The notes below the pieces were generated by a model, which was not told the origin of the DNA, made no database searches, and saw nothing but the letters and a program-made list of their open reading frames with translations. Made by a program: the position numbers and the translations under genes. A stretch of DNA of 46,701 nucleotides from a virus (Duplodnaviria > Heunggongvirae > Uroviricota > Caudoviricetes): the IMG/VR virus record IMGVR_UViG_3300045988_115807. One strand, 5' to 3'. Shown here piece by piece: positions 20,826 through 32,737 of this stretch (within the stretch, counting starts at the first letter, position 1; every line of letters starts with the position of its first letter).

Positions 20826-21160
20826 CAATACAAGAACATAAACAGAGAACATAAAAATAAAGTAATGACACAAACACAATAAAGAACATAAATAAAGAAT
20901 TAGAACCAATGCTAAATAAAGCAGTACACAAAATGAGAACATTACACCAAATGAGAACATTAATCAAGAACATAACGAAACATAATTCCCCATTATACGC
21001 GCGTATAATGGGGAATTATGTGCTGATTTTCAGAACAAAGTCAAGGAACAAATTTTAACGTTCCGATATTGTGTTTTTATTTATTATCCGTTATTGTGTT
21101 CTGTTAGTTTGTGGCTAAGTTAACGCGTTATTAGTTATCTTATTCTCAAATTGTGTTACG
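20826..21160. repeat. AT-rich tos-like region: AGAACA(T) direct repeats left of, and inverted TGTTCT/TTGTGTT repeats right of, the telomere palindrome
   Basis: CAAGAACATA, GAGAACATA, AAGAACATAAAT, GAGAACATTA (x2), CAAGAACATAACG on the left; CAGAACAAAG, TATTGTGTT (x2), TGTGTTCTG on the right. Confidence 0.6.
20980..21021. other. telRL-like telomere resolution site (42-bp perfect palindrome, telO core)
   Basis: ACATAATTCCCCATTATACGCGCGTATAATGGGGAATTATGT is perfectly self-complementary; centre between 21000 and 21001; central CCATTATACGCGCGTATAATGG matches my recollection of the N15 telO core; 171 bp upstream of telN. Confidence 0.85.
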
Positions 21161-21191: not shown

Positions 21192-23093
21192 ATGAGCAAA
21201 GTAAAAATCGGTGAATTAATAAACTCACTTGTTAGCGATGTTGAGTCAATAGATAACTCTGACCGTCCTCAAGGGGAGAAAACAAAAAAAATAAAGGCTG
21301 TTGCATTAAAATTTAAAAATGCATTATTTAATGACAAGCGAAAGTTTAGGGGGAAAGGATTAGAAAAAAGAATTACAGCCAACACATTCAATGCCTATAT
21401 GAGCAGGGCCAGAAAACGGTTTGATGATAAACTTCATCATAGCTTTGAAAAAAATATACATCGCCTATCTGAAAAGTATCCTTTATATAATGAGGAGCTA
21501 TTGTCATGGCTTTCTCTACCTGCTGCCGATATTCGCCAGAGAATGTCAGCTTTACAGGCAAAATTAAAATTAATTCTCCCTCTATCAGAAGATTTATCTA
21601 ATATCAGAATTGGCGATAACAAAAGTCATAATAAGTTATTGAAATTATCAAATAAATATAAAGAGTGGCAATTCGCCATTTCTGATTTAACTAGCGATAA
21701 CTGGAAAGATAAGCGCGATTATTTATATAAATTACTACAGCAAGGATCTGCCTTACTTGAGGAGTTGAATCAGCTAAAAGTTAACCATGAGATTCTCTAT
21801 CATCTTCAACTAAGCCCTGCCGAACGTGCATCTATCCAGCAACGATGGGCGGACGTTCTGCACAATAAGAAACGTAACGTGGTGGTCATTGATTACCCTA
21901 AATATATGCAAGCTATTTACGATATTATAAATAGCCCTGCTACATTAAATAATCTAAACACTCGTTCAGGTATGGCTCCTTTGGCATTTGCACTTGCTGC
22001 ATTGTCAGGAAGACGAATGATTGAGATTATGTATCAAGGTACATTTACTGTTTCTGGTAAGTATACCGTTGATTTTTTAGGCCAAGCTAAAAAAAGAACT
22101 TCTGATAATATAACCAGAAAAATATATACATTATGCGAAGCAAAAACATTTGTTTATTTAATAAATGTACTTCGCTCATGCCCAGCAGCATCTGATTTTG
22201 ATGATGTCGTTAAAGGTTATGGAGATAACGACACACGCTCTGAAAACGGACGTATTAATGCCATATTAGCAAAGGCTTTTAACCCGTGGGTTAAATCATT
22301 TTTTAAAGATGACCGCCGTGTTTATAAAGATAGTCGTGCTATTTATGCCCGTATTGCGTATGAAATGTTTTTCCGCGTAGATCCTCGTTGGAAAAACGTA
22401 GATGAAGATGTTTTCTTTATGGAAATTTTAGGCCATGACGATGAAAACACTCAATTACACTATAAGCAATTCAAGCTGGCCAACTTCTCAAAGACATGGA
22501 GGCCAAATACTGGAAACGAAAATACCAGGCTGGAAGCATTGCAGCAGCTTGATGACGAAATGCCTGGATTCGCCAGAGGAGATGCCGGGGTTCGTCTGCA
22601 TAACACAGTTAAGCAGCTGGTAGAGCAGGACCCCTCTATAAAAATCACGAACAGCACTCTAAGAGCGTTCAAATTTAGCCCAACAATGATTAGTCGATAC
22701 CTGGAATTTGCTGCTGATGCTCTGGGGCAATTTGTTGGCGAAAACGGACAATGGCAACTGAAAATAGATACTCCAGAAATCGTTATGCCTGACGAAGAAG
22801 AACTGGAAGCAATACCTGAACTGGCGGATGAATTATCAGAGGATGACGATCTGGATGACGACGAAATTGAGATAGAGGAAGAGGAAGAGGAAGAGGAAGA
22901 TAGCGTAGAAGAACAGCAACCGCCTGCACCTTCTTCGCCTGTATCTAAGCCGGTATTTAAGCCGGTGAGAAATATTGGTGATGGCTCATACGTTGTTGAG
23001 TTTCATTATAATGGCCAGAATTATGCGTGGTCCGGCAGTGCAAACAGCCCCATGTCAGCAATGCAGTTAGCATGGCTGACATATTTCGGTTAA
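21192..23093 (+). CDS. telN: protelomerase TelN (telomere resolvase)
   Basis: 633 aa; MSKVKIGELINSLVSDVESIDNSDRPQGEKTKKIKA...RSGMAPLAFALAALSGRRMIEIM...HDDENTQLHYKQFKLANF... matches N15 TelN from memory; acidic Glu/Asp-rich C-terminal stretch. Confidence 0.95.
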   Translation: MSKVKIGELINSLVSDVESIDNSDRPQGEKTKKIKAVALKFKNALFNDKRKFRGKGLEKRITANTFNAYMSRARKRFDDKLHHSFEKNIHRLSEKYPLYNEELLSWLSLPAADIRQRMSALQAKLKLILPLSEDLSNIRIGDNKSHNKLLKLSNKYKEWQFAISDLTSDNWKDKRDYLYKLLQQGSALLEELNQLKVNHEILYHLQLSPAERASIQQRWADVLHNKKRNVVVIDYPKYMQAIYDIINSPATLNNLNTRSGMAPLAFALAALSGRRMIEIMYQGTFTVSGKYTVDFLGQAKKRTSDNITRKIYTLCEAKTFVYLINVLRSCPAASDFDDVVKGYGDNDTRSENGRINAILAKAFNPWVKSFFKDDRRVYKDSRAIYARIAYEMFFRVDPRWKNVDEDVFFMEILGHDDENTQLHYKQFKLANFSKTWRPNTGNENTRLEALQQLDDEMPGFARGDAGVRLHNTVKQLVEQDPSIKITNSTLRAFKFSPTMISRYLEFAADALGQFVGENGQWQLKIDTPEIVMPDEEELEAIPELADELSEDDDLDDDEIEIEEEEEEEEDSVEEQQPPAPSSPVSKPVFKPVRNIGDGSYVVEFHYNGQNYAWSGSANSPMSAMQLAWLTYFG

Positions 23094-26449: not shown

Positions 26450-26641
26450 TTACTCCCCGTTCACCGAAAATTCACGATAGAAACGTTTCCACATACGATA
26501 AGTCTGCGCAAATTGTTCACCACGAAACATCGCCTTCCTGGCCTTCATGTTTTCCTTGTGAGACTTTCGGTCTATGAACCAAAACCATTGATGGAACACA
26601 CAAAGCAAGAGACACAAAGATAATATCCAATCATTACCCAT
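26450..26641 (-). CDS. small hydrophobic protein (63 aa) overlapping the repA stop
   Basis: Internal ATG of ORF 26450-26758 (MGNDWILSLCLLLCVFHQWFWF...), overlapping the repA 3' end by 8 nt. Confidence 0.35.
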   Translation of the reverse strand: MGNDWILSLCLLLCVFHQWFWFIDRKSHKENMKARKAMFRGEQFAQTYRMWKRFYREFSVNGE

Positions 26642-29600
26642 AGAAAGCGCCCTGCTCTTCGTAGCTGCATGAGCTATTCCCCGTAATGTATTCACGTAAC
26701 CGCCGCAGCTCATTGCTGGAAAGGTGATCCATGAACTCTGTGAGGTACAGGGATGCAAACGTCATAGCTATGCTGGCTGATGACCATGATGACATAGTGG
26801 CCAACTCCTCACTGGAAAGCGCACTCATCGCCCAGGACTCAGGTACAGCCACTGGCAACACGGCCAAAGCCTCAGAAATTACTGAATGAGGGGCGTTTTG
26901 AACCTGCTCGTTTGTGGATCGCGTTTTATCATCCATATATATATTGAGATCCAAATCGCGATCCATTTCGATGGCTGTCTTCTCGGCTTTACGCGTTTTT
27001 AGGGTTAGGCCATCTTTCTGACGCTGAACAAGAATATCCAGCATAAATGCCGCTGATTCAGGCTCAACAAAACGCAAGGTTGGACGCTTATCGCCGTCTC
27101 TGCCGCGACGTTTACCTGTTTTAAGGCCAAGAGAGTCGCAAATGTTTTTAAACAACGCTTCCGGCACTTTAGGCTTCCCTTTTGGCGTCATAAAACCACC
27201 AATGTGCAGAACGTTATTCAACAGGTCACGGCGTTCGGCTGTCATGAGGTTATCTCGAGCGAATTTGAGACGCTCCTGAGTCGCCTCGCCGGTCATAGTC
27301 TCAGGGTTGATACCGCAGTCGATAAAGTACTGCCGGAGAGTTGCTGATTTAAGCGCATAGAAACCGCGCGCCCCGACTTCAACAGTAGGAGTAGCTTTTA
27401 CCTTGTGATCGATTATTCCAGGGAATTTAGTTTTAAAGACATCATCAGCCTGCTCGCGAGTCATCGCGGTCACTACAAAATATTGCCACTGTCCCGCCTG
27501 ACGGTATGTGTAGGTAAAATTGATGGCTGCTTCTTCCCGGTCGTAACGACGAGCTGTTACCTCATCTAAAAGCATTGTTTCATAGCGGCGAACTTTGTCT
27601 CGAGCACCATCGAAATAGAATTTCAGCGTGCCTTCTTCAACCGGTAGTTTCAGTTCGTTTTCAATATCCCAGCGGACAAGTTTTGCCTGTTCTTCAAGCG
27701 TCAGCGCGCGTTTTTTTAGCAGTTCTTCACGCTCTGATTCTTGTGGTGTTTCTGTATTGAGGTGCAGATCCAGTGTCTGTTCCCACACAATATCCCGCGC
27801 TTCTTTACGCAGATCTTTACCGATATCATTCGCAGCATAATCGGTGGCCAGCGGTGATACCTTATAACCGTCGCTGTGCATGATGCAGATCATGTTGCTG
27901 GCGTAGTCGTTACGCGCAGTCGCTTCAATTGCGGCTGCTTTAATTTTCATCCTGGTAAAGTCGGTATTGGCCACCCCCATTGATATACGGTCGCCATCGA
28001 AAACGACATCCGTAAGTTCACCGTTCATACCTGCGGTAGCAAGCAATGCCTGGGCGAATGCTCGTTCTATTTTTTGCGGGTCAGTTTCACGTTTTGCACG
28101 AGCTTTATCAAAGCCGATAATAAATTCTTTTGCTGTACGGTCGCGGCGTAGCATTTGCACTGCATCACTGGGTACAACTTCACCACAGAACATGCCGAAA
28201 TGACGGTCAAAATGTTTTTGCTCAATCGACACGCCGGATGAAATAGACGGGCTATAAATCAGGCCGTCGTATTTTTTGACCATCTTTTTCGGTTGATTGG
28301 TAAATGCTTCAACTTCTGGCTCTGGTTTGTTTTTCTGGTTTACACACAGAAATTTCTTACCAGGAAAATGCATTCTCAGGGTGGCTGTCACATCTTCTGC
28401 AAAGGTGGAGCTGTCGGTGGCCAACATGATTTTTTCGCCATCCGATACAGCTTTCACCACCTCGGTCATGATGCGATCTTTTTCTGTATAAAAAACCCGG
28501 ATTGGCTCACCTGTTTCGCGGTTGCGAACATCAACAGGTAATTCAATTACGTGGATCTGCAGCCATGCCGGTAAACCTAGTTCTTCACGGCGTTTCATAG
28601 CCAGTTCAGCCAGGTCAACCAGCAGATCGTTCGCATCAGCATCCACCATGATTGGGTGTTGTTCCGTTCTGGCCAGCGCGTCAATTAGCGTATTGAATAC
28701 AGCCACCGGGTTTTCCATAGCCCGACCGGAAAGAACGGCACGTAGCCCTTGTGTGGCCTCGTCAAAGCCAAAATAGTCGTGCTGGCGCATCAACGGTTGC
28801 CAGCAGTTTTTAACAATCGAGTTTATGCAGATGGTCAGTTTACTGGCGTATGGAGCCATTTCCTGATAGCCAGGGTCCTGATAGTGCAGGATATCGGTTT
28901 TTACACCTTTTCCTTCTGTCATCATTTCCCACAGGCCACCAATAAGGGAAACACGGTGAGCAACAGAGATACCACGTTCTGAGCTATGCATTAAAGGTCG
29001 TAACAATCCAGTAGATTTGCCGGAACCCATACCAGCACGAACGATGACTATCCCCTGTAGTGATTGCACATACTTCAGGACGTCATCGGTCATTACCGAA
29101 GTTTCAAAACGCTTATAGGTGATATGTTGAGGACGTTTATTGGGATCAGTTATGCGTTCGCTGAATGAGCGCGGAGCCTGGGCAATACGGCACTTTTTAT
29201 TCAGGCGACGGGCAATGTGGTCTTTTACCGTAGCGCGATAGATATTTTCCAGCCCCATTTCACGCAGAACGATGCAGAACATGTTAAATAAGTCTGACGG
29301 ACTGTTAGGAACCGGACAGGTTAGCATGCCAATATCCACCGCTCTCAGCAGCTCTTTGGCAAAAGTACGACGGTTATCCCGCTTAATTGTCTTCAGGCGG
29401 TTGAGCGTCAGAGATAGCAAATCAGTGCCGGTTTTCAGGCGGTTTGCAGTTGCAAACAGTTGACGTGCTGTTTCACGAAGTCCACGCAGTTTGTGCAGGT
29501 CGTTGAAGTCACTGCACTCCATTTGCGGATCGTCTTCAAAAGTTGGATAGACGCAGCGGACATCGTTGAATTTCGATAAGATTTCATAGCCAGTCCGCAG

Positions 29601-30629
29601 GCCGGTATTCCCTTTTCCTTCTGTGGCTGATTTCCGGTCATTATCCAGTGCGCAGGTGATTTTTGCCGCCGGGTACATGTTTACCAGTTGTTCCACAACA
29701 TGAACCATGTTATTAGCGGATACAGCGACAACCACAGCGTCAAAGCGTTTATCTTTTTTCGTGGCAAGCCAGATGGATGCACCAGTAGCAAAACCTTCTG
29801 TAACAGCGATGTTTTGCGCCCCTTTTAGCTCACCGATAACAAAGCAGGCACCGACGAAATCGCCGCTGGTTACGGCGCTGGTCTGGTATTTTCCACCTTG
29901 TTTGTCGATTCGCTGCCAACCCACAATACGACCATCGTAACGACCGTCCAGGTGAGCCAGAGGGATAGCCATATACGTGGTTGGCCCCCTGCTCCATTTT
30001 GCGCTGTCGTGACTGGTCACGCGACGCACATCACACGAATTAAAAACGTCACGAATACCTTTTTTAATCGCATATGGCCATGAGCCGTCTTCTGCAGGAG
30101 CATGTTCCCACGCGCTGTGGAATGCCAGCCATCCCAGCAAACGTTCATGGTCCATTTGGTTGTTTTTCAGGTCATTAATTCGTTTTTGTTCTTCACGGCG
30201 ACGACGTGCTTCGGCCTGACGTTCTATTCTTGCCCGTTCTTCTTCCGGTTGTGCGACCACGGTCGCATTATTCCGTTGTTGCTCACGGCGATATTCAGAA
30301 AACAGGAAGGAGAAACCGCTCCATGAGCCAGCATCGCTGCCTTTATGGACGAAGTTAATGAACGGGTAATCAATCCCTTTGCTGTGTTCCAGCCGGGAGT
30401 AAATTTCTACGCGTCCTTTGAGGCTCTTTTCGAGAGCTTCTGGAGATGTTTTATTGTATGAAGAGTAACGCTCAACACCCCCGCGAGGGTTGAGTTGGAT
30501 GTTGTCGGAACAGGCAGACCAGTTGATACCAGCCATCTGTGCCAGCTCGGTTAGTTCATCCCGTGCTGCTTCAATTAGCGAGAACGGATCGCTGCCAAAG
30601 CGATCCGCATAGAAATCGTTTAATGTCAT
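26634..30629 (-). CDS. repA: replication protein RepA (primase-helicase, N15 RepA-like)
   Basis: 1331-aa ORF; contains Walker-A-like GMGSGKST; size and position next to cB match N15 repA, whose 3' part is reported to contain the replication origin. Confidence 0.9.
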   Translation of the reverse strand: MTLNDFYADRFGSDPFSLIEAARDELTELAQMAGINWSACSDNIQLNPRGGVERYSSYNKTSPEALEKSLKGRVEIYSRLEHSKGIDYPFINFVHKGSDAGSWSGFSFLFSEYRREQQRNNATVVAQPEEERARIERQAEARRRREEQKRINDLKNNQMDHERLLGWLAFHSAWEHAPAEDGSWPYAIKKGIRDVFNSCDVRRVTSHDSAKWSRGPTTYMAIPLAHLDGRYDGRIVGWQRIDKQGGKYQTSAVTSGDFVGACFVIGELKGAQNIAVTEGFATGASIWLATKKDKRFDAVVVAVSANNMVHVVEQLVNMYPAAKITCALDNDRKSATEGKGNTGLRTGYEILSKFNDVRCVYPTFEDDPQMECSDFNDLHKLRGLRETARQLFATANRLKTGTDLLSLTLNRLKTIKRDNRRTFAKELLRAVDIGMLTCPVPNSPSDLFNMFCIVLREMGLENIYRATVKDHIARRLNKKCRIAQAPRSFSERITDPNKRPQHITYKRFETSVMTDDVLKYVQSLQGIVIVRAGMGSGKSTGLLRPLMHSSERGISVAHRVSLIGGLWEMMTEGKGVKTDILHYQDPGYQEMAPYASKLTICINSIVKNCWQPLMRQHDYFGFDEATQGLRAVLSGRAMENPVAVFNTLIDALARTEQHPIMVDADANDLLVDLAELAMKRREELGLPAWLQIHVIELPVDVRNRETGEPIRVFYTEKDRIMTEVVKAVSDGEKIMLATDSSTFAEDVTATLRMHFPGKKFLCVNQKNKPEPEVEAFTNQPKKMVKKYDGLIYSPSISSGVSIEQKHFDRHFGMFCGEVVPSDAVQMLRRDRTAKEFIIGFDKARAKRETDPQKIERAFAQALLATAGMNGELTDVVFDGDRISMGVANTDFTRMKIKAAAIEATARNDYASNMICIMHSDGYKVSPLATDYAANDIGKDLRKEARDIVWEQTLDLHLNTETPQESEREELLKKRALTLEEQAKLVRWDIENELKLPVEEGTLKFYFDGARDKVRRYETMLLDEVTARRYDREEAAINFTYTYRQAGQWQYFVVTAMTREQADDVFKTKFPGIIDHKVKATPTVEVGARGFYALKSATLRQYFIDCGINPETMTGEATQERLKFARDNLMTAERRDLLNNVLHIGGFMTPKGKPKVPEALFKNICDSLGLKTGKRRGRDGDKRPTLRFVEPESAAFMLDILVQRQKDGLTLKTRKAEKTAIEMDRDLDLNIYMDDKTRSTNEQVQNAPHSVISEALAVLPVAVPESWAMSALSSEELATMSSWSSASIAMTFASLYLTEFMDHLSSNELRRLREYITGNSSCSYEEQGAFYG
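30250..30266. repeat. sopC-like centromere palindrome (copy within the repA 5' region, 17/18 match)
   Basis: GTGCGACCACGGTCGCA(T); same dyad as the other four copies. Confidence 0.55.
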
Positions 30630-30682
30630 TTTTTAGCCATTCCATGCGAATTATGTTTTTTCGGGTTGAAAAAATCCGCAGG

Positions 30683-30739
30683 AGCAGCCACAATAAACGC
30701 ATCTTGAATTGACGGAATCCGTCGCGTTACTGTGGCTGC
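30683..30739. promoter_or_regulatory. 13-bp inverted repeat pair in the repA promoter region
   Basis: GCAGCCACAATAA ...30 bp... TTACTGTGGCTGC (one mismatch), enclosing TTGAATTGACGG. Confidence 0.35.
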
Positions 30740-30752
30740 TTCCTGAAAAGGA

Positions 30753-30780
30753 CCCGAGTTTGCCGACTCGGGTTTTTTTT
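30753..30780 (+). terminator. strong hairpin plus T8 between repA and cB
   Basis: CCCGAGTTTGCCGACTCGGG followed by TTTTTTTT on the plus strand; on the minus strand the same hairpin is followed by only TTTT. Confidence 0.55.
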
Positions 30781-30874
30781 CGTCTTTTTTCTGCTGCTGT
30801 AACCTGAGTCAACCCACAGAACATATGCTCTGCATTAAACCAGATTTACAGCAAACAATAAACCCCGTATTAAG

Positions 30875-31471
30875 TCATCTACCCTCAACCATGAATGATT
30901 TGATCGTTCCGACTATTTGGTGAACAAATTCAAGATCGCTTTTCCTGAAGATGGCGCGTTGTGAATTTGTTCCGTCCAGATAGTAATTTTCATCATCAAA
31001 ACGGGCCAGGCGCTGGATGGTGATATTTCCTGCAGTATCACGAACCAGAACATCCTCGCCGGGAACCAGTTCCAGCGCAGAATCGACCAGGAGAAAATCG
31101 CCTGGCTGATAGTTTCCCTGCGCCAGATTGCTGATAGTTAACGCATAAACAGTATTGCGCTGGCTGATGAATGGCAGGAATCGCTCAGTATTTGGAACCT
31201 GTCCTGGCTTCCACTCTTCATCAGGTCCACTTTCAGTTGTGCCAATAACAGGAATGCGATCAGGGTCATATTCTGTCCCATACAGCACCCAATGCACTGG
31301 CTTGCGTAAGCACTTAGCCAGGGCAATACCTATCTCCAGTGACGGCATTACGTCGCCACGTTCTAAGTTTTGGACGCCTGCAATAGAGATATCGACAGCC
31401 TCAGCAACTTCTCGCAACGTCAGCTTCATCTCTAAACGGCGTGCTTTCAGTCGTTCGCCTCGTGTTTTCAT
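30875..31471 (-). CDS. cB: prophage repressor CB (HTH N-terminus, CI/LexA-like C-terminal domain)
   Basis: MKTRGERLKARRLEMKLTLREVAEAVDISIAGVQNLERGDVMPS... HTH_XRE-type N-terminus; divergent from cro; position as N15 cB. Confidence 0.85.
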   Translation of the reverse strand: MKTRGERLKARRLEMKLTLREVAEAVDISIAGVQNLERGDVMPSLEIGIALAKCLRKPVHWVLYGTEYDPDRIPVIGTTESGPDEEWKPGQVPNTERFLPFISQRNTVYALTISNLAQGNYQPGDFLLVDSALELVPGEDVLVRDTAGNITIQRLARFDDENYYLDGTNSQRAIFRKSDLEFVHQIVGTIKSFMVEGR

Positions 31472-31493
31472 AGCTTAATCATAAATGATCTTC

Positions 31494-31535
31494 TTATAGC
31501 TGGCTATAAAATTTATTTATTATAGCTGGCTTTAA
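31494..31535. promoter_or_regulatory. candidate CB operators in the cB-cro divergent promoter region
   Basis: TTATAGCTGGCTATAA (31494-31509) and TTATAGCTGGCTTTAA (31520-31535), 26 bp apart; a TATAAT at 31551-31556 lies 6 nt before the second cro ATG. Confidence 0.5.
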
Positions 31536-31784
31536 ATGAGATTTATTGCTTATAATAACCGCATGAAACCAGAAGAACTTATTCGCCACTTTGGCAGTGT
31601 AGAAAAAGCAGCGGCTGGGGTAGGTGTAACACCCGGTGCTGTTTACCAATGGTTAACCGCTGGAGAGATTCCTTCATTGCGGCAAAGTGATATTGAAGTT
31701 CGTACTGCTTACAAGCTGAAGAGTGACTTTACAACTCGGCGGGTAAAGCAGTCGATTAAGGAGAGCCGTAAGCGTGGAGCTTGA
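31536..31784 (+). CDS. cro: Cro-like HTH regulator
   Basis: Small HTH protein (…GSVEKAAAGVGVTPGAVYQWL…) divergent from cB; true start may be the ATG at 31563 (MKPEEL). Confidence 0.7.
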   Translation: MRFIAYNNRMKPEELIRHFGSVEKAAAGVGVTPGAVYQWLTAGEIPSLRQSDIEVRTAYKLKSDFTTRRVKQSIKESRKRGA

Positions 31785-32484
31785 GTATATACGCAGCTGC
31801 GTATCCACGGCATTGGCTGATATTCATTATCGCCAGCGTGGCATCCTAGAGGTCCAGCTTGAGCAGATGCGTCTAGGCAGATCAGGACGCTTTAACAATA
31901 AACCAGTCCGGTCAATCAGTGTAGGTGATGATAACTCATACGAAGTGTCCGTTCCTGCTGAGCCGGTTAGATTCCACCAGGGGAAAACATTTAAACAATC
32001 ATCAATGTTGCTCACTGATATTGATTTTCAGAGCGCCAGCTGGCGCAGGGCTATTGGTCAGTTGAATAACGAGGAATCAGCCTGGCTTTATTATTGCTAC
32101 GGATGCAAGCCTGATTACAACAATGATGTGATTGTTTGTCAGTGGTTATGGCTTGATTTTCTGGTTGCTCATTCGGGGGGCGGCTTTAAAAAAATGAAGG
32201 CCTCCACGAAAAAAGCCATGCGGAAATTGATTTATTACGCGGCACAGCAGGTTAAATCAGAACTTACGTGTGCTGAGGCAGTTGATGAGAGAGAACAGGA
32301 CAGGCATCTGAGTTTTCTACTGAATATATCTATTGATAGCTGGAGACAAGATTATAAAGAACGCTGGCTTTTAATTAAGTCGCGATGTCTGAGCTTAAAT
32401 CGAACTGCATTATTAAATGCGGCGGAGAAGCGCAGTGAAATCATCAAACGCCATCGGGCAGGAAGTGCCATTCTGCCTTTGTAA
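31774..32484 (+). CDS. putative late-gene antiterminator (Q-like)
   Basis: 236-aa ORF immediately after cro, as in N15 (cB-cro-Q); Cys-containing YYCYGCKPD segment; assignment is by position, not strong sequence recall. Confidence 0.4.
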   Translation: MELEYIRSCVSTALADIHYRQRGILEVQLEQMRLGRSGRFNNKPVRSISVGDDNSYEVSVPAEPVRFHQGKTFKQSSMLLTDIDFQSASWRRAIGQLNNEESAWLYYCYGCKPDYNNDVIVCQWLWLDFLVAHSGGGFKKMKASTKKAMRKLIYYAAQQVKSELTCAEAVDEREQDRHLSFLLNISIDSWRQDYKERWLLIKSRCLSLNRTALLNAAEKRSEIIKRHRAGSAILPL

Positions 32485-32494
32485 ACAAGTTATG

Positions 32495-32737
32495 TTCAGG
32501 AAACCGTCGAAGCCAGAATTAAGGTATTCGGGGGTAAGAAATGAATATGTTATCTGGTGTCCAACTTGTGGTTACAGGACACGACCAGATAGTAATAAGC
32601 AGTCTGTAATTGCCGATTGGTATTTATCAAATCAGCCAGGTAATAAGCATATAGAAAATCTTTGGATTAAGCGTTACTTGGAAATCAGAGAGGGTGCGAC
32701 CGTGGTCGCACAAGAAAATGAAAATAACGCCATTTAA
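32495..32737 (+). CDS. small hypothetical protein with zinc-ribbon-like motif
   Basis: MFRKPSKPELRYSGVRNEYVIWCPTCGYRTRPDS...; internal start of ORF 32417-32737; no clear RBS. Confidence 0.3.
   Translation, partial: FRKPSKPELRYSGVRNEYVIWCPTCGYRTRPDSNKQSVIADWYLSNQPGNKHIENLWIKRYLEIREGATVVAQENENNAI
32694..32711. repeat. sopC-like centromere palindrome
   Basis: GTGCGACCGTGGTCGCAC: 8-bp inverted arms with a 2-bp spacer. Confidence 0.65.

Follow-up and report, generated by a model that had tools for sequence, protein, structure and literature searches.

A putative antisense RNA opposite the repA leader of an N15-like telomere phage-plasmid

Abstract

We have analysed the region between repA and cB of an N15-like telomere phage-plasmid. 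Judging from its sequence, the region very probably encodes a predicted RNA of about 80 nt that is antisense to the untranslated leader of repA. It is probably the copy-number control module of an N15-type RepA replicon, in which this RNA would act against the repA leader. As aligned here, the antisense-RNA control region is an already known feature, carried as putative in N15 since 1996 (Lobocka et al.). Below we document how the region is built, how it corresponds by homology to the N15 annotation, and how it is conserved and co-varies among related elements; we infer that the RNA is made, pairs as proposed and lowers RepA.

Background

In the CopA/CopT system of R1 (IncFII) and the Inc RNA systems of ColIb-P9 (IncI) and IncB, a short, structured, constitutive RNA that ends at an intrinsic terminator lies opposite the rep leader and finds its target in a leader stem-loop. 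The interaction region varies among related replicons of these systems, with promoter and terminator fixed. pT181, pIP501 and pAMbeta1 are Gram-positive plasmids with unrelated Rep proteins. Regulation of repA in N15 is reportedly discussed by Mardanov and Ravin (2006) and by Ravin (2011).

In N15 and phiKO2, the repressor CB binds OL operators, affecting repA transcription and copy number, and the operators have the form TA-N10-TA (PMC4997575). The N15 immB record (U45242.1) annotates "Pinc; promoter of putative antisense RNA", a "putative terminator of RNA antisense to repA transcript", a "putative terminator of repA leader transcript", and CB operators OL1 and OL2 over "PL; putative promoter of repA gene". 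A second N15 record (AF064539) gives a "putative rho-indep. transcription terminator", and the phiKO2 record (AY374448) marks the terminator in the Gp35-Gp36 intergenic region as "putative bidirectional". In a search of the full-text literature outside the primary N15 papers, we found no mention of the antisense RNA beyond CB binding at the OL operators, and no report of an antisense RNA family or of its diversification.

Results and discussion

The window, by which we mean the whole 46,701-nt stretch of DNA that was analysed, is an N15-like telomere phage-plasmid. Its repA control region is 100% identical to that of Escherichia phage PhiR46_1 and about 80-81% identical to that of N15 over 300 nt, and the repA product shares 83% amino acid identity with N15 gp37/RepA across the first 300 residues. 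Homologues of repA are annotated as primase or replication protein in PhiR46_1, N15 and phiKO2. The region sits between cB and repA, which run in the same direction, and this is the N15-type placement. As the sequence-only reading had stated, the nearest plus-strand gene lies more than 7 kb upstream: the long ORF (at least 90 aa) at 21192..23093 ends 7.6 kb away. Features are collected in Table 1.

Table 1. Features of the repA-cB region and flanking genes (positions in the window)
Feature	Position	Strand	Details
repA, replication initiator, 1331 aa	26634..30629	-	ORF list; start codon 30629-30627
repA ribosome-binding region	30634..30646	-	leader reads ...CAUGGAAUGGCUAAAAAAUG; aligns with ribosome_binding_site 23-35 of U45242.1; assigned by homology
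Pinc-type promoter	30666..30694	+	-35 TTGAAA 30666-30671; 17-nt spacer; -10 CACAAT 30689-30694
Left repeat arm, 3' arm of repA-leader hairpin	30679..30700	-	holds complement of Pinc -10; invariant in N15-like elements
Predicted antisense RNA, ~80 nt	30701..30780	+	5' tail of ~13 nt, single-stranded; stem-loop I 30714-30743; terminator stem-loop; U8
Hypervariable segment	30701..30745		antisense 5' tail and stem-loop I; also loop and 5' arm of leader hairpin
Right repeat arm, 5' arm of repA-leader hairpin	30724..30745	-	inverted-repeat search, folds
Intrinsic terminator of predicted antisense RNA	30746..30780	+	A tract; stem 30753-30759 / 30766-30772; T8 30773-30780
Probable CB operator OL1	30824..30839		TATGCTCTGCATTAAA; overlaps repA promoter -10 TTTAAT (complement of 30834-30839); assigned by homology
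Probable CB operator OL2	30847..30862		TACAGCAAACAATAAA; overlaps repA promoter -35 TTTATT (complement of 30857-30862); assigned by homology
cB, prophage repressor, 198 aa	30875..31471	-	ORF list; cI/CB in PhiR46_1, N15 and phiKO2

All control elements of U45242.1 align base for base with the window, and the order is the same: repA start, ribosome-binding site, Pinc, inverted repeat, hairpin CCCGAGTTTGCCGACTCGGG followed by T8, two CB operators over PL, and cB. The promoter block and the terminator are identical to those of N15. The two elements differ in the 45 nt between transcript start and terminator, which are strongly divergent and so give a different RNA/target pair sequence. The operators also differ at several positions, and the ribosome-binding region by one change (GGAAUGG in the window, GGAAAGG in N15). 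In phiKO2 the hairpin and its position are homologous to those of the window, the record annotates the terminator only, without an antisense promoter, and the variable segment is 4 nt longer and of different sequence. When positions 30000-32500 were scanned against Rfam, no family reached its gathering threshold; the best match, NsiR1, fell on the terminator hairpin and scored 26.4 bits where its threshold is 39.

Both 16-bp operator candidates fit the TA-N10-TA form, overlap the predicted repA promoter and are probable CB operators by homology. The OL1 candidate aligns with the protein_bind feature "CB, operator OL1" and the PL -10 of U45242.1, and the OL2 candidate with the second CB-binding site and the PL -35. 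The OL2 candidate also resembles a site at 31542-31557 in the cB-cro region of the window.

The promoter of the predicted RNA is the Pinc homologue. Its hexamers, on the strand opposite to repA and about 36 nt from the repA start codon, are identical in sequence and spacing to those of N15 Pinc (U45242.1 positions 56-61 and 79-84). The promoter scan gave 9/12 consensus matches with a predicted start at about 30700-30702; the -10 CACAAT is an imperfect match to the consensus, as are the PL hexamers. An exact 33-nt Pinc block was present in all 47 of the N15-like loci found through the protein, and an xAxAAT -10 and a -35 keep this position in lineages whose RepA identity is as low as 41-64%. 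The sequence-only reading had placed promoter-like hexamers between the arms of an inverted repeat, which does not hold: the conserved promoter has its -10 inside the left arm. TTGAAT/TTGACG, the candidate between the arms (30705-30714), has no -10 partner and lies in hypervariable, unconserved sequence.

Between this promoter and the intrinsic terminator, a short RNA is delimited opposite the rep leader, and its length falls within the range of about 50-150 nt for countertranscripts. The RNA folds at -30.4 kcal/mol (z = -3.84), its three-part shape was predicted in 37/37 unique homologues and again in distant lineages, and the predicted RNAs span 70-109 nt across 20 representative lineages. 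The 5' segment folds better on the plus strand in 37/37 (-11.5 versus -4.6 kcal/mol), where its z-scores run from -0.5 to -2.8, with values near 0 for the minus strand; G+U composition could explain part of this strand asymmetry. Co-variation within stem-loop I was weak, with cognate 5' and 3' halves only 1 kcal/mol better than chimeras, and a sequence-based alignment with RNAalifold gave little, namely two compensatory pairs. An RNA antisense to the repA 5' end had been proposed from the sequence alone; the N15 annotation and the conservation support such an RNA, with the correction that it overlaps the leader and not the 5' end of the coding sequence.

The terminator has the form that was first noticed, a perfect, canonical hairpin oriented with the plus strand (CCCGAGT, loop TTGCCG, ACTCGGG) and followed by T8. 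It scores z = -3.8 on the plus strand and was the only terminator-like site in 29500-32000 in the terminator scan. As in the N15-type hairpin CCCGAG...CTCGGG, its antisense side carries a T run and its opposite side an A tract; the core is identical in N15 and phiKO2, and the stems vary between lineages in compensatory fashion. Its homologues are the two terminators annotated in U45242.1 and the one that phiKO2 labels "putative bidirectional". Read in the minus direction, the hairpin is followed by UCCUUUUC, a U tract shorter than the CCUUUUUC of N15, and it is predicted to form a weaker terminator or attenuator of the repA leader and of cB read-through.

This dual orientation raises the reading that the hairpin is essentially a bidirectional terminator or attenuator of minus-strand transcripts (cB read-through and the PL leader), with the plus-strand hexamers inactive and no RNA made. 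The flanking A tract, which supplies a U-rich tail minus-ward too, agrees with it, as do the leader-terminator label in N15 and the bidirectional label in phiKO2. The hairpin is the sole terminator-like site between cB and repA, and repA must logically be uncoupled to some extent from the constitutive transcription of cB. The T tract on the antisense side, however, holds 7-8/8 in all 14 lineages measured, whereas the leader-side U tract holds 3-6/8 and is essentially absent in PY54-like elements (UUCGUA). The position and form of the -35 and -10 are moreover kept across lineages without detectable DNA similarity and are invariant in the N15-like loci, and a terminator alone leaves unaccounted for a hypervariable segment bounded exactly by transcript start and terminator. 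We consider this reading unlikely, and the bidirectional role that it describes is compatible with an antisense RNA. A bidirectional cB terminator had also been suggested at the outset; this matches the phiKO2 and N15 annotations, but minus-strand transcription from the repA promoter would reach the hairpin downstream, within the leader, so that in this direction it would attenuate the leader instead of simply ending cB transcripts. Hexamer position and T-tract asymmetry favour the antisense RNA over the bidirectional cB terminator as the conserved primary role.

The inverted repeat belongs to the leader. The 13-bp pair first noticed, GCAGCCACAATAA (30684-30696) and TTACTGTGGCTGC (30727-30739), is present and 12/13 complementary. 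The inverted-repeat search returned 14 nt at 93% (30683-30696 / 30727-30740), and pairing reaches about 22 bp with one bulge per side. Only 10 inverted repeats of this kind (13 nt or more, no further than 60 nt apart) occur in the window, this one included. The 79-nt segment of the leader hairpin folds at -38.2 kcal/mol, compared with -18.7 +/- 3.1 for shuffles (z = -6.35; 0/200 as good). Since the Pinc -10 falls within its left arm, the inverted repeat can only be the repA-leader hairpin and not a promoter-flanking element. On the plus strand, the bases of the right arm form the 3' half of antisense stem-loop I. The complement of the antisense 5' tail lies in the apical loop of the leader hairpin, which places the target in a structured rep-mRNA leader, assuming that the leader starts at the PL homologue.

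The right arm varies yet still pairs with the invariant left arm. In group B, 3/11 pairs in the arms are altered on both sides (e.g. AU:3, GC:2, CG:1), and U.G pairs on the leader strand would be A.C mismatches on the opposite strand. Similar compensatory arm changes occur in the N15-like group plus lineages L110, L112 and L114. These changes bear on the view that the repeat is a DNA-level site, a protein operator or cruciform that controls Pinc or repA without an RNA hairpin. Its left arm does overlap the promoter -10, a typical place for an operator, both DNA strands carry the symmetry, and the plus-strand fold equals or exceeds the leader fold in 9/37 N15-like sequences and in several distant lineages. 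The arms are nevertheless bulged and stand 25-60 nt of variable sequence apart, unlike a dimer-binding operator, and sites of the CB operator form lie elsewhere, at 30824-30862. The compensatory changes, together with U.G pairs possible only on the leader strand (also in N15 and in L124/L125), point to selection for RNA pairing and away from a sequence recognised by a protein, and we regard a DNA-level site as very unlikely.

An ORF spans the leader (30824..30651, 57 codons, ATG start, ending 22 nt before the repA start), and the KpLi5 record has a hypothetical protein at the equivalent place; both would fit a small leader protein whose translation is coupled to repA, as in IncFII, IncI and IncB. 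Among the homologues, however, start codon, frame and presence vary, which speaks against coupling of the IncFII tap or IncI repY type. The ATG is confined to the lineage of the window, with TTG or no ORF elsewhere, and the ORF is absent in phiKO2 and in KpLi5-type sequences. Three different frames are seen at its end, since the variable segment carries indels of lengths not divisible by three, and its start is at or upstream of the predicted 5' end of the leader. Such coupling is extremely improbable.

Conservation is distributed unevenly over the region. Among 30 unique loci found through the protein, the 45-nt hypervariable segment has a mean pairwise identity of 60.9% (minimum 38.8%), set between a block from the ATG to the transcript start at 94.8% and a terminator at 97.9%, with adjacent coding DNA at 88-92%. 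The segment is thus bounded by conserved blocks and is a candidate specificity (incompatibility) determinant. The same architecture was found in 20 representative lineages, among them PY54 and relatives whose RepA identity is 41-64%. In each, 17-18 nt separate a -35 from an xAxAAT -10 that lies in the left arm of a long inverted repeat, and the loop and right arm of this repeat precede a terminator with a T run. A scan of genome contigs with RepA added one extra locus only. The region is missing from Kpn_R1, whose record is partial and unverified. In VP882/phiHAP-like replicons there may be a countertranscript that is analogous but arranged differently. We tentatively extend the proposal, at somewhat less than even confidence, to a modular cassette of antisense RNA and leader hairpin in all enterobacterial telomere-phage RepA replicons, in which diversifying selection would act on the 45-nt segment and give rise to mutually orthogonal specificity (incompatibility) types; "all" here means the N15-, phiKO2- and PY54-like replicons and two or more additional lineages, with RepA identity down to 41%.

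We propose the following mechanism. Transcription of repA would run leftward from a CB-repressed promoter (about 30834-30862) and give a leader of about 200 nt, which would first meet the hairpin 30772-30753, a weak terminator in this direction, and would next fold into a long hairpin from both repeat arms (30745-30679). From about 30701, the Pinc-type promoter would drive constitutive synthesis of an RNA of about 80 nt that ends at the hairpin and U8 (30780) and is fully complementary to the repA leader. The 5' tail of this RNA would match the large apical loop of the leader hairpin on its 3' side, so that pairing would most likely begin at this loop and spread into the 5' arm. After pairing, RepA synthesis would drop in proportion to plasmid copy number, whether by cleavage or decay of the leader, by a block of translation or by attenuation.

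Thermodynamic folding was used to weigh the second of these options. Blocking the part of the leader complementary to the antisense RNA left the accessibility of the repA ribosome-binding region unchanged in 37 N15-like sequences and shifted it in mixed directions in 15 distant ones. A translational switch was set aside, as this accessibility did not change consistently in the folded leaders. Pairing of the left arm with codons 2-4 occurred only in the lineage of the window; neither pairing of the U tract with the Shine-Dalgarno sequence nor an anti-Shine-Dalgarno beside the 3' arm, as in PY54 and group B, held across lineages.

Attenuation of transcription, as in pT181 and pIP501, would have antisense binding decide whether the leader hairpin, or a second hairpin and U run just ahead of the repA ribosome-binding site, stops the polymerase before repA. 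The leader inverted-repeat hairpin is in fact followed by CGGA-UUUUUU, and PY54-like and group-B lineages have a second hairpin with U4-U8 directly before the ribosome-binding region (in PY54, UGCGCAACUGUGCA-GAGCUUUUUUUU, flagged by the terminator scan). In N15-like elements, on the other hand, the U run begins 4 nt past the stem, and no U run follows the second hairpin, which is an A/U stem. Full antisense pairing would also destroy rather than create the inverted-repeat hairpin, which implies activation and not inhibition. We know of no precedent for antisense transcription attenuation in enterobacterial plasmids, and we judge this route improbable.

Returning to the antisense RNA against the repA leader, its comparable anatomy, known here from sequence, resembles that of the CopA and Inc RNA systems in outline. 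Unlike them, it has no sequence or Rfam relationship and no conserved leader peptide, 70 nt or more separate its target from the repA start further downstream, and the phage repressor CB is an additional control. A conserved pseudoknot between loop and ribosome-binding site was looked for in the leader and none was found, which is a further difference from those systems. With pT181, pIP501 and pAMbeta1 the region shares alternative leader pairings, an antisense RNA against the 5' part of the leader and U runs after leader hairpins, but in N15-like elements the hairpin and U run are not arranged as in an efficient terminator.

Conclusions

The annotation of the region is tidied, in that an "orphan" plus-strand terminator gains a plausible small transcript and the inverted repeat is assigned to the repA leader. 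With promoter and terminator fixed on either side of 45 nt that evolve fast, and with an architecture that persists well past detectable DNA similarity, this arrangement is of modest wider use: it could serve for compatibility-group typing of phage-plasmids, as a source of orthogonal copy-control parts, or for the definition of an RNA family. The region also underlies the N15-derived linear cloning vectors (pJAZZ, PMC2847241). The region matched 214 plasmid records, and it is predicted to set the copy number of a linear phage-plasmid whose family is widespread in clinical Klebsiella and E. coli. If the modular cassette holds true, several N15-like phage-plasmids could coexist in one Klebsiella or Escherichia cell.

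Results

Over the 701 bases around the region between repA and cB, identity is 100% to Escherichia phage PhiR46_1 (46290 bp), 98.4% to phage YDC107_1 and ~78-81% to the linear phage-plasmids N15 and phiKO2 and several Klebsiella and Enterobacter relatives. The YDC107_1 record has the length of the window (46701 bp), yet shares 98.4-98.7% identity across the region. A further 214 plasmid records match the region, most of which carry a 'plasmid replication protein, CyRepA1 family' beside an XRE/LexA-type regulator. The region occurs twice on some plasmid records and on IMG/VR contigs such as UViG_2703718687_000004 (loci L011/L043) and UViG_3300045988_113976 (L019/L024); where strands are known (the IMG/VR contigs), the copies are inverted, as expected from read-through hairpin telomeres or assembled head-to-head dimers.

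Every feature annotated at the homologous site in GenBank U45242.1 (N15 immB region) aligns to the window. The region is directly homologous to the N15 Pinc/PL control region and belongs to that type. In the complete N15 record the hairpin is labelled a rho-independent terminator and the operators CB-binding, and the phiKO2 record labels the hairpin 'putative bidirectional'. In N15 and phiKO2, CB is reported to bind the OL operators and to affect repA transcription and copy number (PMC4997575, PMC4488713). These papers on CB binding at OL make no mention of an antisense RNA, which is thus documented here solely as a 'putative' annotation. The elements of the region had been annotated as putative in 1996, and nothing is new for the window itself.

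Features of the repA-cB region. Identities are mean pairwise values; features with a U45242.1 label align to that record, and OL and PL positions are by alignment with N15.
Feature	Window position	Strand	U45242.1 label	Identity (%)	Remark
repA	26634..30629	minus			1331 aa, flanking ORF
repA, first 57 nt				87.7	
repA ribosome-binding site			ribosome-binding site		
repA start codon to predicted RNA start				94.8	
Pinc-type promoter	TTGAAA 30666-30671, CACAAT 30689-30694	plus	'Pinc; promoter of putative antisense RNA'		17-nt spacer; same hexamers as N15; -10 in left arm
Inverted repeat (repeat finder)	30683-30696 / 30727-30740				14 nt at 93%
Inverted repeat, one bulge per side	30679-30700 / 30724-30745				~22 bp
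Variable 45 nt	30701-30745			60.9	minimum 38.8, with indels
Terminator hairpin	stem 30753-30759 / 30766-30772; T8 30773-30780	plus	'putative terminator of RNA antisense to repA transcript'	97.9	
Leader terminator		other strand	'putative terminator of repA leader transcript'		
Operator/promoter stretch				87.7	
OL1	30824-30839		CB-binding operator		probable CB operator
OL2	30847-30862		CB-binding operator		probable CB operator
PL -10, TTTAAT	complement of 30834-30839	minus	'PL; putative promoter of repA gene'		
PL -35, TTTATT	complement of 30857-30862	minus			
cB end				91.9	
cB	30875..31471	minus			prophage repressor gene, 198 aa, flanking ORF

The sequence-only reading had noted a hairpin and T8 oriented to end plus-strand transcripts, with the nearest plus-strand gene more than 7 kb upstream, and both points hold: the closest long plus-strand ORF upstream (at least 90 aa; 21192..23093, 633 aa) ends 7.6 kb off. 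A perfect 42-bp palindrome (20980-21021, ACATAATTCCCCATTATACGC / GCGTATAATGGGGAATTATGT) lies 170 nt upstream of this ORF and is a candidate telomere-resolution site (telRL/telO) of the kind that adjoins the protelomerase gene in N15. Within cB, a 107-codon plus-strand ORF (31155..31478) runs antisense to the gene; its equivalent in U45242.1 is an 'unknown' CDS (580-942), for which that record gives a separate ribosome-binding site; the 3' part of cB has a perfect 11-bp inverted repeat (30922-30932 / 30962-30972, GAACAAATTCA / TGAATTTGTTC).

Pinc is the sole plus-strand promoter-like site of the region, and the hairpin with T8 is the sole terminator-like site within 29500-32000. The position of PL gives a repA leader of ~200 nt. 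Since the hairpin lies downstream of PL in the minus direction, it would affect both the repA leader and read-through from cB. The T tract on the antisense side is 7-8 of 8 in all 14 lineages measured, whereas on the leader side the U tract is 3-6 of 8, and PY54-like elements lack it. It is this asymmetry that argues best for termination of a plus-strand transcript as the hairpin's conserved role; minus-strand termination or attenuation is an extra, lineage-dependent role.

The 13-bp inverted repeat reported earlier exists as a pair, although its complementarity is 12/13; the promoter-like hexamers between its arms, which it was said to bracket, lack a -10 partner and fall in a non-conserved segment, so this one detail does not hold. 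Only ten inverted repeats of such size and spacing occur in the whole window. Against shuffles, the repeat segment folds with z = -6.35 (minus strand) and -6.45 (plus strand). Because the Pinc -10 is inside the left arm, an RNA started at Pinc carries the right arm only, and both arms occur together only in the minus-strand repA leader, where they are predicted to form a long hairpin with an apical loop of ~25 nt that includes the complement of the antisense RNA 5' tail. The right arm supplies the 5' side of this leader hairpin and, in the antisense RNA, the 3' half of stem-loop I; the left arm is invariant because it doubles as hairpin 3' arm and carrier of the Pinc -10. That the repeat acts as an operator at the DNA level is unlikely, given the variable spacing of its arms, its bulges and the wobble pairs on the leader strand. 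An invariant GCTGCT just past the terminator (30792-30799) repeats the motif of the right arm; when constrained folds released the left arm of the leader, that arm paired with the complement of this GCTGCT.

The plus strand at ~30701-30780 is predicted to fold (-30.4 kcal/mol, z = -3.84) into a single-stranded 5' tail of ~13 nt, stem-loop I and a terminator stem-loop, a shape predicted in 37/37 unique homologues notwithstanding their sequence differences. Over the tail and stem-loop I, the plus-strand fold beats the minus in all 37 (means -11.5 vs -4.6 kcal/mol); against dinucleotide shuffles, plus z values run from -0.5 to -2.8 and minus values scatter around zero. Direct co-variation is weak (two compensatory pairs in a sequence-based alignment), and cognate half-molecules fold only ~1 kcal/mol better than chimeras, so stem-loop I is likely real, not proven.

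N15-like loci were gathered by DNA pattern (49 IMG/VR loci) and, independently of that pattern, through RepA protein (47 loci). The exact 33-nt Pinc block occurs in 47/47 protein-ascertained loci. Segment identities among the 30 unique sequences of this set show that the hypervariable stretch spans the predicted plus-strand RNA start to its terminator. A variable 45 nt in a fixed frame is the pattern that would be expected of a diversifying antisense/target interaction region with constant expression signals. Across 30701-30745 of the window and the homologous loci L065-L113, 23 distinct RNA sequences were found, which may represent different specificity or incompatibility types. In the unverified partial genome of Klebsiella phage Kpn_R1 (PQ800144, L061, ~1470-1510), repA codon ~10 is joined directly to the stem-loop I segment, without the invariant block from repA start to Pinc; the element is defective or the assembly in error.

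Distant lineages, found by profile search with RepA N-termini and supplemented with PY54, share 41-64% RepA identity and have an intergenic region without detectable DNA similarity. The order of elements was the same in 20/20 representatives examined: repA start, 29-39 nt, -35 (TTGAAA or TTGCGC), a 17-18 nt spacer, a -10 (CACAAT, CAGAAT, TACAAT, TAAAAT or TATCAT) that falls within the left arm of a long inverted repeat, loop, right arm, and a GC-rich hairpin with a T run, with predicted RNAs of 70-109 nt. The arms vary in compensatory fashion (CCACAAT/ATTGTGG vs CCAGAAT/..TCTGG; CTTAGC/GCTAAG vs CGTGGC/GCCACA vs TTTGGC/GCCAAA), and further compensatory arm pairs occur in the N15-like group with L110/L112/L114. 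RNAalifold on six leaders of group B, a group among these lineages, found both sides changed in 3/11 basal pairs, and leader-strand U.G pairs whose opposite-strand counterparts would be mismatches. Terminator stems also differ between lineages and include CCCGAG/CTCGGG, CCCAGC/GCTGGG, CCCGGT/ACCGGG and GCCCCGG/CCGGGGC.

VP882/phiHAP-like loci (L134, L136, L139, L140, L142; 26-32% RepA identity) have a promoter-like TTGACG/TTGACT/TTGACA-17-TAAACT (AAAACT in L142) on the strand opposite repA, followed ~100-130 nt downstream by a strong GC-rich hairpin that has a T-rich tail and is located upstream of repA. These replicons may have an analogous, differently laid out countertranscript.

Discussion

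The sequence-only reading had offered a copy-number control RNA antisense to repA or a bidirectional cB terminator; the data support its interpretation, and among elements of this family such a feature is ordinary. A regulatory plus-strand RNA is probably made here. In the best-supported account, a cis-encoded countertranscript would pair with the repA leader, most likely beginning between the RNA 5' tail and the leader hairpin loop, and this pairing would lower RepA synthesis; repression of PL by CB and partial termination within the leader would add further layers of control. When the antisense-complementary part of N15-like leaders was forced single-stranded, predicted ribosome-binding accessibility was unchanged; in other lineages it shifted in inconsistent directions. 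An attenuation variant of antisense control is conceivable, as U runs come after leader hairpins and in PY54 the ribosome-binding site is directly preceded by a terminator-like hairpin, but the hairpin/U-run geometry is poor in N15-like elements.

The IncFII, IncI and IncB countertranscript controls are alike in outline, but the window's region shares no sequence with them, matches no Rfam family and is without a leader peptide, a conserved one in the repA leader having been excluded. On the comparative data above, all enterobacterial telomere-phage RepA replicons may share the antisense cassette, and its 45-nt segment may set their compatibility types.
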